Source: a virus (Duplodnaviria; Heunggongvirae; Uroviricota; Caudoviricetes). From it: a stretch of DNA of 6,692 bases. The notes below the pieces were generated by a model. It was given only the letters and a program-made list of their open reading frames with translations, searched no databases and was not told where the DNA came from. This document shows positions 1-6,692 of the stretch, one piece after another. The number at the start of each line of letters is the position of its first letter. Within the stretch, counting starts at the first letter, position 1. The stretch lies in IMG/VR virus record IMGVR_UViG_2651869782_000008; one strand, written 5' to 3'. The position numbers and the translations under genes were made by a program.

Positions 1-158
1 CCCCGCAGTACAACATCGAGATCAATAACGATGGCACGAACGGGCAGATAGGTCCGGCTGCCCTGAAGGTGGTTTATGACCTTGGGAAAAAAGCGGCAGC
101 GGACTTTATGCAACAGCAGGCCCGTGATGGTGGTCGGTTAAGTGGAGCATATCGGTAA
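1..158 (+). CDS. H: Tail tape-measure protein H, C-terminal end (5'-partial, reading frame starts at nt 3)
   Basis: Open frame from the window edge translating to ...PQYNIEINNDGTNGQIGPAALKVVYDLGKKAAADFMQQQARDGGRLSGAYR*, with stop TAA at 156-158. The stop overlaps the ATG of the next gene (TAATG), as at the lambda H/M junction. Position directly upstream of M fits the lambda order. Not in the ORF track because it has no start inside the window. Confidence 0.75.
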   Translation, partial: PQYNIEINNDGTNGQIGPAALKVVYDLGKKAAADFMQQQARDGGRLSGAYR

Positions 159-487
159 TGGAGACGTTTCACTGGAAAGTGCGCCCGGATATGAATGTGG
201 TATCAGAGCCGAAAGTGGTGACAGTGAAGCTGGGCGATGGTTATGAACAGCGTCGTGCGGCGGGACTGAATAACCAGTTGTCGACTTACAGCGTGACGAT
301 ACGTGTTCGTAAATGTGAACACCCATCTTTAAAAGCCTTTCTGGAACGGCACGGTGGCGTCCGCGCATTTCAGTGGACGCCACCTTATGACTGGAAGCCG
401 ATCAGGGTGGTTTGTCGTAAATGGTCGGCAAGCGTGGGGGCGCTGTGGGTAACCATAACGGCAGATTTTGAACAGGTCGTGGCATAG
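158..487 (+). CDS. M: Minor tail protein M (tail tip assembly)
   Basis: 109-aa ORF (METFHWKV...ADFEQVVA), the same length as lambda gpM and in the expected position between H and L. GGAG at 144-147 sits about 10 nt upstream of the ATG. Stop TAG at 485-487. Confidence 0.88.
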   Translation: METFHWKVRPDMNVVSEPKVVTVKLGDGYEQRRAAGLNNQLSTYSVTIRVRKCEHPSLKAFLERHGGVRAFQWTPPYDWKPIRVVCRKWSASVGALWVTITADFEQVVA

Positions 488-496
488 GAGGCTCTG

Positions 497-1195
497 ATGC
501 AGGATATTCCACAGGAAACACATCATGAGACGACACGCCTCACTCAGTCAGCCCAGGTGGTGCTCTGGGAAATCGATCTGACAGAGGTCGGTGGTGAACG
601 TTATTTTTTCTGTAATGAGCAGAACGAAAAAGGTGAGCCGGTTACCTGGCAGGGGCGGCAGTATCAGGCATACCCCATTCAGGGGACGGGATTTGAACTG
701 AACGGCAAGGGCAGTGCTGCCCGTCCGACACTGACGGTTTCTAACCTGCACGGAATGGTCACCGGGATGGCGGAAGACCTGCAGAGTCTGGTCGGCGGAA
801 CGGTGGTCAGGCGTAAGGTTTACGCCCGTTTTCTGGATGCGGTGAACTTCGTCAACGGAAACAGTGACGCCGATCCGGAGCAGGAGGTGATCAGCCGCTG
901 GCGCATCGAGCAGTGCAGCGAACTGAGCGCGGTCAGTGCCTCTTTTGTACTGTCCACGCCGACGGAAACGGACGGTGCTGTTTTTCCGGGGCGCATCATG
1001 CTGGCTAATACCTGCACCTGGACCTATCGCGGTGATGAGTGCGGTTATCACGGTCCGGCTGTCGCTGATGAATATGACCAGCCGACGTCCGATATCACGA
1101 AGGATAAATGCAGCAAATGCCTGAGTGGTTGTAAGTTTCGCAATAACGTCGGCAACTTTGGCGGCTTCCTTTCCATTAACAAACTTTCGCAGTAA
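497..1195 (+). CDS. L: Minor tail protein L (tail tip assembly, Fe-S cluster-binding)
   Basis: 232-aa ORF, the length of lambda gpL. AGGAGG at 486-491 lies 5 nt upstream of the ATG. The C-terminal region carries clustered cysteines (NTCTW, DECGY, DKCSKC, SGCKF) consistent with the [4Fe-4S] site reported for gpL. Confidence 0.88.
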   Translation: MQDIPQETHHETTRLTQSAQVVLWEIDLTEVGGERYFFCNEQNEKGEPVTWQGRQYQAYPIQGTGFELNGKGSAARPTLTVSNLHGMVTGMAEDLQSLVGGTVVRRKVYARFLDAVNFVNGNSDADPEQEVISRWRIEQCSELSAVSASFVLSTPTETDGAVFPGRIMLANTCTWTYRGDECGYHGPAVADEYDQPTSDITKDKCSKCLSGCKFRNNVGNFGGFLSINKLSQ

Positions 1196-1199
1196 TCCC

Positions 1200-1944
1200 A
1201 TGACACAGACAGAATCAGCGATTCTGGCGCACGCCCGGCGATGTGCGCCAGCGGAGTCGTGCGGCTTCGTGGTGAGAACGCCGGAAGGGGAAAGATATTT
1301 TCCCTGCGTGAATATCTCCGGTGAGCCGGAGGAGTATTTCCGGATGGCGCCGGAGGACTGGCTGCAGGCAGACACTGCACGGTCAGATTGTGGCGCTGGT
1401 CCACAGCCACCCCGGTGGTCTGCCCAGGCTGAGTGAAGCCGACCGGCGGCTGCAGGTGCAGAGTGATTTGCCGTGGTGGCTGGTCTGCCGGGGGGCGATT
1501 CACAAGTTCCGCTGTGTGCCGCATCTCACCGGGCGGCGCTTTGAGCACGGGGTGACGGACTGTTACACACTGTTCCGGGATGCTTACCATCTGGCGGGAA
1601 TTGAGATGCCTGATTTTTATCGTGAGGATGACTGGTGGCGTCACGGTCAGAATCTCTATCTGGATAATCTGGAGGCAACGGGGCTGTATCAGGTTCCGTT
1701 GTCAGCGGCGCAGCCGGGCGATGTGCTGCTGTGCTGTTTTGGTTCATCGGTGCCGAATCATGCCGCCATTTACTGTGGTGACGGCGAGCTGCTGCACCAT
1801 ATTCCTGAACAACTGAGCAAACGAGAGAGGTATACCGACAAATGGCAGCGACGCACACACTCCCTCTGGCGTCACCGGGCATGGCACGCATCTGCCTTTA
1901 CGGGGATTTGCAACGATTTGGCCGCCGCATCGACCTTCGTGTGA
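1200..1944 (+). pseudogene. K: Tail assembly protein K (JAMM/MPN + NlpC/P60 domains), interrupted by a +1 frame offset; possible pseudogene or sequence error
   Basis: The N-terminal part (MTQTESAILAHARRCAPAESCGFVV...PEDWLQAD) is read in one frame from ATG 1200 and hits a stop at 1434-1436. The rest of the protein (..GQIVALVHSHPGGLPRLSEAD...GVTDCYTLF...NHAAIYCGDGELLHH...STFV) is in the +1 frame and ends at 1944. The 16 nt between the conserved Ala codon (1368-1370) and the conserved Ile codon (1387-1389) is not a multiple of 3. The JAMM Glu motif (E-x-C-G) is in the first frame; the HxH-x7-S-xx-D motif (codons from 1402) and the NlpC/P60 Cys (1561-1563) are in the second. The 3' end overlaps I by 103 nt, as in lambda. 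Confidence 0.7.
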
Positions 1945-2489
1945 AAACGGGGGCCGAAGCCATCCGGGCGCTGGCCACACAGCTCCCGGCGTTTCGTCAG
2001 AAGCTGAATGACGGCTGGTATCAGGTGCGCATTGCCGGGCGTGATGCAGGTGAAACCGAATTATCTGCCCGTCTTAATGAGCCGCTGGCAAATGGTGCCG
2101 TGATCCATATCGTGCCGCGTCTGGCGGGAGCTAAAAGTGGCGGTGTATTTCAGGTGGTGCTGGGGGCGGCGTTGATTGCGGTGGCATGGTGGAACCCTGT
2201 GGGCTGGCTGGGTGCCGCGGCTGTATCGGGCATGTATGCGGCAGGGGCCAGTATGATCCTGGGCGGTGTGGCGCAGATGCTGGCACCGAAAGCCAGGACC
2301 CCAACAACAACCAGCACAGATAACGGCAAACAGAACACCTATTTCTCATCACTGGATAACATGGTTGCCCAGGGCAATGTTCTGCCTGTTCTGTACGGTG
2401 AAATGCGTGTGGGGTCACGGGTAATTTCGCAGGAAATCAGCACGGCAGACGAAGGGGATGGTGGTGAAATCGTGGTGATTGGTCGCTGA
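1842..2489 (+). CDS. I: Tail assembly protein I
   Basis: 215-aa ORF beginning MAATHTLPLASPGMARICLYGDLQRFGRRIDLRVKTGAEAIRALA and ending ...QEISTADEGDGGEIVVIGR, which matches my recollection of lambda gpI at both ends. It has a central Gly/Ala-rich hydrophobic segment. GAGAGG at 1824-1829 lies upstream of the ATG. The start is embedded in the 3' end of K. Confidence 0.88.
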   Translation: MAATHTLPLASPGMARICLYGDLQRFGRRIDLRVKTGAEAIRALATQLPAFRQKLNDGWYQVRIAGRDAGETELSARLNEPLANGAVIHIVPRLAGAKSGGVFQVVLGAALIAVAWWNPVGWLGAAAVSGMYAAGASMILGGVAQMLAPKARTPTTTSTDNGKQNTYFSSLDNMVAQGNVLPVLYGEMRVGSRVISQEISTADEGDGGEIVVIGR

Positions 2490-2549: not shown

Positions 2550-5500
2550 ATGGGTAAAGGCAGCAGTAAGGGGCATACCCCGCGCGAAGCGAAGGACAAC
2601 CTGAAATCCACGCAGTTGCTGAGTGTGATCGATGCCATCAGTGAAGGGCCGGTTGAAGGTCCGGTGGATGGCTTAAAAAGCGTGCTGCTGAACAGTACGC
2701 CGGTGCTGGACAGTGAGGGGAATACCAATATCTCCGGCGTCACGGTGGTGTTCCGGGCAGGTGAGCAGGAGCAGACACCGCCGGAGGGATTTGAATCCTC
2801 CGGCTCCGAGACGGTGCTGGGTACGGAAGTGAAATACGACACGCCGATCACCCGCACCATCACGTCGGCAAACATCGACCGTCTGCGCCTGACCTTCGGT
2901 GTACAGGCACTGGTGGAAACCACCTCAAAGGGAGACAGGAATCCGTCGGAAGTCCGCCTGCTGGTTCAGATACAACGTAACGGTGGCTGGGTGACGGAAA
3001 AAGACATCACCATTAAGGGCAAAACCACCTCGCAGTATCTGGCCTCGGTGGTGGTGGATAACCTGCCGCCGCGCCCGTTCAATATCCGGATGCGCAGGAT
3101 GACGCCGGACAGCACCACAGACCAGCTGCAGAACAAAACGCTCTGGTCGTCATACACCGAAATCATCGATGTGAAACAGTGCTACCCGAACACGGCACTG
3201 GTCGGCGTGCAGGTGGACTCGGAGCAGTTCGGCAGCCAGCAGGTGAGCCGTAATTATCATCTTCGCGGGCGCATTCTGCAGGTGCCGTCGAACTATAACC
3301 CGCAGACGCGGCAATACAGCGGTATCTGGGACGGAACGTTTAAGCCAGCATACAGCAACAACATGGCCTGGTGTCTGTGGGATATGCTGACCCACCCGCG
3401 CTACGGCATGGGGAAACGTCTTGGTGCGGCGGATGTGGACAAATGGGCGCTGTATGTCATCGGCCAGTACTGCGACCAGTCAGTACCGGACGGCTCTGGC
3501 GGCACGGAGCCGCGCATCACCTGTAATGCGTACCTGACCACACAGCGCAAGGCGTGGGATGTGCTCAGTGATTTCTGCTCGGCGATGCGCTGTATGCCGG
3601 TATGGAACGGGCAGACGCTGACGTTCGTGCAGGACCGACCATCAGATAAGGTGTGGACCTATAACCGCAGTAATGTGGTGATGCCGGATGATGGCGCGCC
3701 GTTCCGCTACAGCTTCAGCGCCCTGAAGGACCGCCATAATGCCGTTGAGGTGAACTGGATTGACCCGAACAACGGCTGGGAGACGGCGACAGAGCTTGTG
3801 GAAGACACGCAGGCCATTGCCCGTTACGGTCGCAATGTCACGAAGATGGATGCCTTTGGCTGTACCAGCCGGGGGCAGGCACACCGCGCCGGGCTGTGGC
3901 TGATTAAAACAGAACTGCTGGAAACGCAGACCGTGGACTTCAGCGTCGGCGCAGAAGGGCTTCGCCATGTACCGGGCGATGTTATTGAAATCTGCGATGA
4001 TGACTATGCCGGTATCAGCACCGGTGGTCGCGTGCTGGCGGTGAACAGCCAGACCCGGACGCTGACGCTCGACCGTGAAATCACGCTGCCATCCTCCGGC
4101 ACCACGCTGATAAGCCTGGTTGACGGGCAGGGTAATCCGGTGAGCGTGGAGGTCCAGTCCGTCACCGACGGCGTGAAGGTGAAAGTGAGCCGTGTTCCTG
4201 ACGGCGTTGCTGAATACAGCGTGTGGGGGCTGAAGTTGCCGACGCTGCGCCAGCGCCTGTTCCGCTGCGTGAGTATCCGTGAGAACGACGACGGCACGTA
4301 TGCCATCACTGCCGTGCAGCATGTACCGGAAAAAGAAGCCATCGTGGATAACGGGGCGCACTTTGACGGTGACCAGAGCAGCACGGTGAATGGTGTCACG
4401 CCGCCAGCAGTGCAGCACCTGACCGCCGAAGTCACCGCAGACAGCGGGGAATATCAGGTGCTGGCGCGCTGGGACACGCCGAAGGTGGTGAAGGGCGTGA
4501 GCTTCCTTCTTCGCCTGACCGTGGCAGCGGATGACGGCAGTGAGCGGCTGGTCAGCACGGCCCGGACGACGGAAACCACATACCGCTTCAGGCAACTGGC
4601 GCTGGGGCGTTACACGCTGACAGTCCGGGCGGTAAATGCGTGGGGGCAGCAGGGCGATCCGGCGTCGGTATCGTTCCGGATTGCCGCACCGGCAGCGCCT
4701 GTCACTATTGAAATGATACCGGGGTATTTTCAGATAACAGCGGTCCCGAAACTGGCTGTATATGACCCGACGGTGCAGTTTGAGTTCTGGTTCTCGGAAA
4801 AGCGGATTGCGGATATCAGGCAGGTTGAAACCACAGCCCGCTATCTTGGCACGGCGCTGTACTGGATAGCTGCCAGTATCAATATCAAGCCGGGCCATGA
4901 TTATTATTTTTACATCCGCAGTGTGAACACCGTTGGCAAATCGGCATTTGTGGAGGCTGTTGGCCAGCCGAGTGATGATGCATCCGGCTATCTGGATTTT
5001 TTCAAAGGAGAGATAGGGAAAACCCATCTGGCTCAGGAGTTGTGGACGCAGATTGATAACGGTCAGCTTGCGCCTGACCTGGCTGAAATCAGGACGTCCA
5101 TTACGGATGTCAGCAATGAAATCACACAGACCGTCAATAAGAAACTGGAAGACCAGAGTGCAGCGATCCAGCAGATACAGAAGGTTCAGGTTGATACAAA
5201 TAATAACCTGAACAGCATGTGGGCTGTGAAGCTGCAGCAGATGCAGGACGGACGCCTTTATATCGCGGGTATTGGTGCCGGTATTGAAAACACCCCTGAC
5301 GGCATGCAGAGTCAGGTGCTGCTGGCGGCAGACAGGATTGCGATGATTAATCCTGCGAATGGCAACACAAAGCCGATGTTTGTTGGGCAGGGCGATCAGA
5401 TATACATGAATGAAGTGTTCCTGAAATATCTGACGGCTCCCACCATTACCAGCGGCGGTAATCCTCCGGCATTTTCCCTGACACCGGACGGGCGACTGAC

Positions 5501-6032
5501 GGCGAAAAATGCGGATATCAGTGGCAGTGTGAATGCGAACTCCGGGACGCTCAATAACGTCACGATAAATGAGAACTGTCAGATTAAGGGGAAACTGTCC
5601 GCCAACCAGATTGAAGGCGATATTGTCAAAACGGTCAGCAAGTCTTTCCCCCGCACGAGCACTTATGCCAGCGGCACCATTACGGTCACGATTAGTGATG
5701 ATCAGAAGTTTGACCGACAGGTCATGATCCCGGCTCTGCTGTTTAAAGGAAGCAGGAAGGAAAATTATGGCAGTAATAATCAACAGTCTTATGTTTATTC
5801 TGTATGCCGTTTGCAGGTAACGAAAAACGGGACAGAAATTTTTAATCAGTCAACAACGGATGCTCCGGCGGTTTTTTCTTCCGTTATTGATATGCCTGCG
5901 GGGCAGGGAACGTTGACGTTAAAGTTTACGGTCTCTTCTTCAATGGTCAATAACTGGACACCGACAACCAGTATCAGCGATTTGCTTGTTGTGGTGATGA
6001 AGAAATCCACCGCAGGTATCACGATTAGCTGA
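2550..6032 (+). CDS. J: Tail tip host-specificity protein J (central tail fibre)
   Basis: 1160-aa ORF with GGAG 8 nt upstream of the ATG. The N-terminal two-thirds are strongly lambda-J-like ([43 protein letters not shown]...). Two tandem fibronectin type III-like modules sit at about aa 615-800, followed by a heptad-like coiled-coil stretch and an AT-richer C-terminal domain. Confidence 0.93.
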
Positions 6033-6099: not shown

Positions 6100-6692
6100 A
6101 TGCGTAAAGTTTGTGCAGCAATTTTGTCCGCAGCCATTTGTCTGGCCGTATCCGGTGCGCCTGCATGGGCGTCTGAACATCAGTCCACGCTGAGCGCGGG
6201 GTATCTTCATGCCCGGACGAACGCTCCCGGCAGCGATAATCTTAACGGGATTAACGTGAAATACCGTTATGAATTTACGGACACGCTGGGGCTGGTGACG
6301 TCATTCAGCTATGCAGGAGACAGGAATCGCCAGCTGACCCGTTACAGCGATACCCGCTGGCATGAAGATTCCGTGCGTAACCGCTGGTTCAGCGTGATGG
6401 TGGGGCCGTCTGTGCGCGTGAATGAATGGTTCAGCGCGTATGCGATGGCGGGTGTGGCTTACAGCCGTGTGTCGACTTTCTCCGGGGATTATCTCCGCGT
6501 AACTGACAACAAGGGGAAAACGCACGACGTGCTGACCGGAAGTGATGACGGTCGCCACAGCAACACGTCTCTGGCGTGGGGAGCTGGCGTGCAGTTTAAC
6601 CCGACCGAATCCGTGGCCATTGATATTGCTTATGAAGGCTCCGGCAGTGGCGACTGGCGCACTGACGGTTTCATCGTGGGTGTCGGTTATAA
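6100..6692 (+). CDS. lom: Outer membrane protein Lom (Ail/Lom/OmpX-family beta-barrel), 3'-partial at window edge
   Basis: ATG at 6100 preceded by GAGAGG (6089-6094). Translation MRKVCAAILSAAICLAVSGAPAWA|SEHQSTLSAGYLHARTN... has a classic signal peptide with an AWA cleavage site. Alternating aromatic/hydrophobic beta-strand patterning (INVKYRYEF, WFSVMVGPSVRV, GFIVGVGY) is typical of Ail/Lom barrels. The frame is open to the end of the window. Position just after J and its terminator matches lambda lom. Confidence 0.85.
   Translation, partial: MRKVCAAILSAAICLAVSGAPAWASEHQSTLSAGYLHARTNAPGSDNLNGINVKYRYEFTDTLGLVTSFSYAGDRNRQLTRYSDTRWHEDSVRNRWFSVMVGPSVRVNEWFSAYAMAGVAYSRVSTFSGDYLRVTDNKGKTHDVLTGSDDGRHSNTSLAWGAGVQFNPTESVAIDIAYEGSGSGDWRTDGFIVGVGY

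Follow-up and report, generated by a model that had tools for sequence, protein, structure and literature searches.

The stretch of DNA analysed here (the window, 6,692 nt) is the entire contig JHRV01000099.1 of the E. coli draft assembly GCA_001265655.1. Open reading frames and Pfam matches identify a lambda-type tail-tip module in the order H 3′ end-M-L-K-I-J-lom start, with the following features.

1..158 (+): 3′ end of H, tape-measure gene, partial at the contig start (a 51-aa cut gene in the public record)
158..487 (+): M, minor tail protein, intact, 109 aa (Pfam Phage_min_tail, E = 1e-39, whole profile)
497..1195 (+): L, minor tail protein L, intact, 232 aa (Pfam Phage_tail_L, E = 1.8e-99)
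1200..1370 (+): 5′ part of K, 57 codons in the original frame, first half of the JAB/MPN domain (Pfam Prok-JAB 3-62)
1371..1371 (+): extra G, the frameshifting insertion (sole gap column of an 86-sequence K alignment)
1371..1436 (+): out-of-frame tail of the upstream frame (DTARSDCGAGPQPPRWSAQAE, from the translation), with TGA at 1434-1436
1372..1944 (+): rest of K, 190 codons and the stop, in the +1 frame (Prok-JAB 60-103 and the full NLPC_P60)
1842..2489 (+): I, tail assembly protein I, intact, 215 aa (Pfam Lambda_tail_I, E = 1.5e-24)
2550..6032 (+): J, tail tip attachment and host specificity protein, intact, 1160 aa (Pfam families and public gene call)
6100..6692 (+): lom-like outer membrane protein gene, partial at the contig end (Pfam Ail_Lom and OMP_b-brl)

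The assignment of H is based on the tail tape measure protein annotated at the homologous position in loci L001 and L002, and the Ail/Lom family is annotated at the loci homologous to the lom gene of the window. The M-L-K-I-J order, with I lying over the 3′ end of K, is found in the window and is also annotated in L001-L004. The exact M and L proteins each occur on at least 1000 contigs. The exact sequences of I (WP_052893192.1) and J (WP_052893193.1) occur on contig JHRV01000099.1 only. Over the whole window, the best complete E. coli genome is about 95% identical, and the deposited phages that cover most of it reach about 96% at best.

The borders of K show small differences between loci. 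The spacer between L and K (window 1193-1199) is 4 nt long in the window and in L003 and 5 nt long, with an extra A, in L001, L002, L090 and L091. Because this 1-nt difference compensates for the additional base in K, whole-region BLAST spans are equal (851 vs 851) and the K insertion is hidden in them. At the other end, the last 103 nt of K (1842-1944) overlap I in another frame; the Lambda_tail_I domain starts at residue 14 of the 215-aa I protein and the overlap therefore codes in both frames. The start of I is annotated inconsistently by PGAP, at the equivalent of ATG 1842 in L003 and L004 and at a GTG overlapping the K stop in L001.

K is divided between two frames. From ATG 1200, translation gives MTQTES...EDWLQA and then runs out of register up to the TGA at 1434-1436. 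The +1 frame, preceded by the TGA at 1309-1311, is open from 1312 to the TGA at 1942-1944 and contains HSHPGGLPRLSEAD and the entire NlpC/P60 domain (NLPC_P60 profile positions 1-105 of 105, E = 7e-13). The Pfam Prok-JAB profile (114 positions) is matched in two fragments, 3-62 and 60-103, which abut across the two frames. These matches and translations agree with an earlier note on this DNA, which had recognised the gene as lambda K, split within its JAMM/MPN domain, and had placed both the upstream stop and the downstream motifs as given here. The same note had assigned 58 N-terminal codons to the original frame; the frame is right, but only 57 codons (1200-1370) are true K, codon 58 containing the extra base. 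An uninterrupted ORF of about 247 codons (744 nt) is hence not present in the window, in which K measures 745 nt with a +1 shift after codon 57.

Deletion of one base in silico yields a 247-aa protein with a single Prok-JAB match of 53.7 bits and the NLPC_P60 domain. The conserved Glu of the JAB/MPN domain lies in APAESCG, in the N-terminal fragment of K. When the repaired protein is aligned to the solved JAMM-like structure PDB 2kks, the Glu of AESCG pairs with the conserved 2kks Glu, the alignment crosses the junction and HSH..S..D falls in the expected position. The JAB motif E ... HxH x7 S xx D (AESCG and HSHPGGLPRLSEAD) is present but, as written, split over two frames. The 78-residue product from ATG 1200 consists of 57 K residues and 21 out-of-frame residues. 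K is a pseudogene as written, because this product keeps the JAB Glu but has neither the HxH...S..D zinc site nor any of the NlpC/P60 domain. The repaired K protein has no exact counterpart in a collection of 15 billion proteins, and a search of this collection for the exact K-fragment proteins returned none. The RefSeq accessions of I and J are consecutive (WP_052893192, WP_052893193), which, together with the lack of a K-fragment protein, is consistent with K having been handled as a pseudogene.

In the public gene call for the contig, K is left out and a 198-aa antisense ORF (1048-1644, minus strand), which spans the frameshift site, is reported. This ORF has no Pfam match and forms a singleton cluster in the 15-billion-protein collection; it is therefore a spurious ‘protein’ created by the broken K. 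Many database entries for K are 199 aa long and start at an internal ATG (window 1344; L002 1696-2295), examples being phage Ayreon and clusters P0062-P0064 with their thousands of members. This start, the historical lambda annotation, removes the JAB Glu, and Pfam then reports NlpC/P60 only.

The site of the disruption was located with a K panel comprising 80 IMG/VR loci (three second copies among them), two complete E. coli genomes and phage Ayreon. K is 745 nt long in the window vs 744 nt in 85 of 85 aligned homologues, and the alignment contains exactly one gap column, so that the two-frame pattern is no product of chance. The indel had previously been confined to 1371-1386, and nucleotide alignment to the closest alleles (L090, L091, L001 and L004) narrows it to G1371. 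The window reads CAG GCA G ACA CTG CAC GGT CAG vs CAG GCA ACA CTG CAC GGT CAG in the intact gene, GCA-ACACTG becoming GCAGACACTG through this additional base. The motif obtained on restoration, GCA-ACACTGCACGGTCAG, is present in the intact K of L090 and L091 (IMG/VR contigs; QATLHGQIV), the local motif QATLHGQIVALVHSHPGG is found in intact K genes, and window 1429-1982 is 100% identical to L090, whose K is intact. The alternative strings without insertion at this site are GCAACACTG and GCAGAAATG/GCAGAGATG, vs GCAGACACTG in the window. In longer form, the insertion version is the 15-nt GCAGGCAGACACTGCACGG and the 14-nt alleles are GCAGGCAACACTGCACGG and GCAGGCAGA(A/G)ATGCAGGG.

Every base of K except the extra G is seen in natural alleles. 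A G to C change at 1384 was considered as a second private change linked to the insertion, indicative of a complex mutation or of a patch of locally poor quality, a reading that came from the 85-sequence panel alone, and was ruled out; L090 and L091 carry C1384 in an intact K, which therefore leaves the extra G as the sole K base unseen in natural alleles. The earlier observation that the site has neither a homopolymer nor a slippery heptamer is correct on both counts (the only run of at least 4 within 1300-1440 is CCCC at 1410, none lying at the insertion), but the insertion does produce a tandem GCAGGCAG at 1364-1371.

The insertion allele is a singleton. A megablast search with 1335-1425 against 5,426 complete E. 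coli genomes gave approximately 6,900 matching K places; all matches listed span 90 nt, not 91, and the insertion allele is not among them. An exact-pattern search showed the allele to be absent from GTDB species representatives, IMG/VR and JGI metagenomes. The progenitor haplotype (170 nt with the G removed) has a best match of 96.5% in complete E. coli genomes, and its 40-nt pattern gave no match in IMG/VR. A search by accession numbers for papers on the sequencing technology or publication of GCA_001265655.1 found none.

Broken copies of K are routine, and none is broken at 1371. Among 57 full-length K matches from an even-step sample of complete E. coli genomes, 54 span 744 nt and 3 are frameshifted, the latter annotated by PGAP as ‘C40 family peptidase, frameshifted’ (strains 25DN, ET201 and FY26). 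In two of the three, a G was lost from a G6 run (window equivalent about 1484-1489), with a further 1-nt loss in ET201, and the remaining one carries a 65-nt tandem duplication. These pseudogenes resemble the K of the window in affecting the same gene of the same module through small indels with L and I intact, and differ from it in their lesions, which are not a non-homopolymer +1 as at 1371. K-bearing E. coli genomes contain a median of 3 K copies and up to 15. The protein database also holds the singleton K variants P0001, P0002, P0003 and P0005 (275-347 aa), with internal tandem duplications, as well as L-K and K-I fusion entries. These variants and fusions are probably assembly or frameshift anomalies in an often-repeated module.

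The best explanation, to which about an even chance is given, is that the extra G is a genuine and very recent insertion. It would have arisen in a QATLHGQIV-type allele, in which either the short direct repeat GCAG-GCA underwent slipped misalignment, leaving GCAGGCAG, or a co-resident K allele of the GCAGA type took part in an out-of-register exchange. The single G after GCA shifts the frame by +1, and tails could probably be made from this prophage copy only if another prophage supplied K in trans. The tandem GCAGGCAG completed by the insertion fits slipped misalignment. In addition, no frameshift interrupts the neighbouring ORFs M, L, I and J (approximately 5.2 kb), which argues against a generally error-prone assembly, and frameshifted K genes do occur in finished genomes, as in the three sampled ones. 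The mosaic around the site, composed of B-type flanks and an A-type patch, is also found intact in the complete genome L004; the local haplotype is therefore explicable without an artefact. Against a genuine insertion stand the singleton status of the allele and its source, a draft assembly in which this repeated prophage module lies on a short contig. The extra base is also the base of the commonest allele (GCAGA..., 80 of 85 in the panel) at a switch of allele type. Spontaneous insertions away from homopolymers are uncommon, and the K lesions of the finished genomes are of other kinds.

A quasi-palindrome template switch was considered as the origin of the extra base and ruled out, as the stems GCAG/CTGC and GACTG/CGGTC are no stabler than in shuffled sequences and the product that such a template predicts differs from the sequence observed.

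The main rival, whose probability is put somewhat below one half, is an assembly, consensus or polishing artefact, the true K being 744 nt long and intact. The strain would carry at least two lambdoid alleles of K, of the types GCA-ACACTGCAC and GCAGA-(A/G)ATGCAG, whose reads were stacked together on a single contig. A gapped alignment over the patch in which the alleles diverge at 5 of 14 nt would then have retained the G column from one allele and taken all other columns from the second. Several observations favour such an error. Both ends of the contig lie within conserved prophage genes, H and lom, and K-bearing E. coli genomes contain several copies of K. The site reads GCAGA (the B-type prefix, shared by 80 of 85 panel sequences) and then the A-type suffix CACTGCACGG, with one base over. 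It lies at the switch between L003-like and L090-like haplotypes, within the sole multi-nucleotide polymorphic patch of K. Even after removal of the G, the best complete E. coli genome agrees with the surrounding 170 nt at only the 96.5% given above, whereas the stretches to either side have exact counterparts in natural sequences that run for hundreds of bases. No second instance of the allele was found in any of the collections, and the many singleton aberrant K entries (internal duplications, L-K and K-I fusions) indicate that such anomalies are common in assemblies.

Other observations weigh against an artefact. A de Bruijn graph assembler cannot output a junction k-mer missing from the reads, and, as the variable sites are closer together than typical k values, a bubble would resolve to one whole allele. 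No further disrupting indel is found in the adjacent ORFs, and the same fine-scale mosaic is intact in the finished genome L004. Chimerism was examined by greedy exact-match tiling against the panel: the M-to-I region of the window tiles in 17 exact-match segments, within the range of 2 to 81 (median 13) for the panel, and the contig is therefore not unusually chimeric overall. The observed pattern would be expected from a real mutation, slipped or out of register, as well as from a consensus error between mixed copies.

Contig-wide chimerism is hence not unusual by tiling, though short segments (10, 16, 11, 8 and 45 nt) cluster at 1347-1436, and short segments occur again in I at 2300-2347; elsewhere, the exact matches extend over hundreds of bases. 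The interval 1347-1436, which lies in K between the JAB Glu and the HxH motif, is a local hotspot of allele mixing.

Any functional reading of the split K is very improbable. In one such reading, given a very small probability, the split gene works, the NlpC/P60 part being separately translated and the shorter K being enough for tail assembly. Translation would reinitiate after the TGA at 1434-1436 at GTG 1456 or TTG 1468, or start at GTG 1321 or 1390. The +1 frame is indeed open over 1312-1944 with GTG and TTG codons, GTG 1456 sits 20 nt beyond the upstream stop so that coupling is conceivable, and the second fragment retains the full NLPC_P60 domain. However, the +1 frame contains no ATG, and its GTG and TTG candidates have no recognisable Shine-Dalgarno sequence upstream, in line with the doubt already expressed in the earlier note about an internal start. 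No such product would have an intact JAB domain, the arrangement is found in none of the 85 aligned homologues, and the JAB and NlpC/P60 fusion is maintained in Escherichia, Salmonella, Citrobacter and Edwardsiella homologues. Moreover, every examined ‘K’ entry of at most 218 aa reflects the choice of an annotation start on an intact 744-nt gene (e.g., Ayreon). The start of the 199-aa lambda K (ATG 1344) was also considered as a rescue and ruled out, being upstream of the insertion and in the broken frame.

Programmed frameshifting is rejected, because there is no two-frame homologue, no slippery site and no significant structure. The two-frame layout occurs in 0 of 85 aligned homologues and in none of the E. 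coli matches listed, and no slippery heptamer of the form X XXY YYZ was found in the overlap zone 1312-1433. The local fold of 1355-1400 has an energy of -5.4 kcal/mol (z = +0.93), 173 of 200 shuffles being as stable or better in this weak test, which used DNA parameters only. The earlier judgement that a programmed frameshift was unlikely is thereby supported, and functional homologues with the same two-frame arrangement, which would have counted against a disruptive lesion, were not encountered among the 85 aligned K genes. The programmed -1 frameshift of lambda G/GT offers a similar two-frame arrangement in a lambdoid tail cluster. In G/GT, the slippery heptamer is conserved and the two-frame layout is conserved across phages. 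In contrast, K of the window has no slippery site and its layout is unique among the homologues; the G/GT locus is, in addition, upstream of H and outside the window.

The weakest reading, with hardly any probability, is +1 ribosomal frameshifting that restores the frame, either at the insertion, where GCA-G allows no +1 re-pairing for the Ala tRNA, or at CCC-C before the rare CGG codon (CCC CGG, 1410-1415), which in the upstream frame precedes the stop at 1434. CCC-C quadruplets are prone to +1 slippage. However, the CCCC at 1410 lies downstream of the homology switch and occurs in all K genes because it encodes H-P-G; a shift at 1410-1413 would replace TLHGQIVALVHSH by out-of-frame residues with loss of both zinc-binding histidines, no slippery heptamer or fold above that of shuffled sequences supports a shift, and no homologue needs one. 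It is likewise highly improbable that the frameshift is real and the tails of the prophage still work, through a CCC-C slip (1410-1413) or a separate NlpC/P60-only product; if this were true, the JAB/MPN zinc site of gpK would be dispensable for tail-tip assembly.

The comparison with lambda places the lesion in a well-known gene. The K of the window shares with lambda gpK (PGAP ‘C40 family peptidase’; Prok-JAB PF14464 and NLPC_P60 PF00877) its position between L and I and upstream of J, its 103-nt overlap with I and, after one base is removed, its domains and the E...HSH...S..D motif. Its nucleotide identity to the panel and the best E. coli K genes is 94-98.5%. It differs in being 745 nt rather than 744 nt long, with the frame broken after codon 57, so that gpK is not encoded as written. 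In lambda, gpK is an assembly factor that is not found in virions and whose location is unknown (PMC10721106, PMC12617516). It is required for tail assembly, as the earlier note had assumed for the tail tip, and the function of its JAB/MPN domain has never been established (PMC12617516). A further parallel is provided by stf, which is disrupted by a frameshift in laboratory lambda (PMC10721106). In both cases, one tail gene of a lambdoid phage is split into two ORFs by a frameshift of a single base, the tail module being otherwise in working order. However, stf is dispensable for plaques whereas gpK is required, and the stf lesion is documented by experiment whereas that of the window comes from one draft contig.

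The proposal that the split K marks a defective or decaying prophage is not supported as stated. Within the 6.7 kb, K alone is disrupted, M, L, I and J being full length. Decay does not follow, firstly because the window is a complete 6.7-kb draft contig and the rest of the prophage is unseen, and secondly because there is no sign of it, the four neighbouring genes being undamaged and K having no change unseen in natural alleles other than the extra G. In addition, the absence of gpK from the virion and the median of 3 K copies make its supply in trans plausible, and an assembly or consensus error remains a live alternative.

In sum, a well-known prophage gene carries a single-base frameshift of an ordinary kind, which is not novel and reflects either a new null mutation or an error in assembly. 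If the insertion is real, the prophage copy in one E. coli isolate would be unable to supply its own gpK. The K of a co-resident lambdoid prophage (at least 95% identical) could plausibly act in trans, and in a strain with further lambdoid prophages the defect would probably be masked. The biological weight of the finding is small, and its practical points concern annotation, K being skipped and an antisense ORF reported in its place. Were the lesion confirmed and the phage found to plate, it would provide a cheap natural test of whether gpK needs its JAB domain; nothing observed points to such an outcome.

Two minor features of J were also observed. At 4700-4705, most panel sequences, compared with the window, lack one nucleotide at 4700 and have an additional one at 4705, which corresponds to a compensated shift or to the alignment equivalent of substitutions over two codons, J remaining in frame. 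At the 3′ end of J (5736-5963), which corresponds to the receptor-binding end, cluster 13 of the 18 window bases that are absent from the whole panel.
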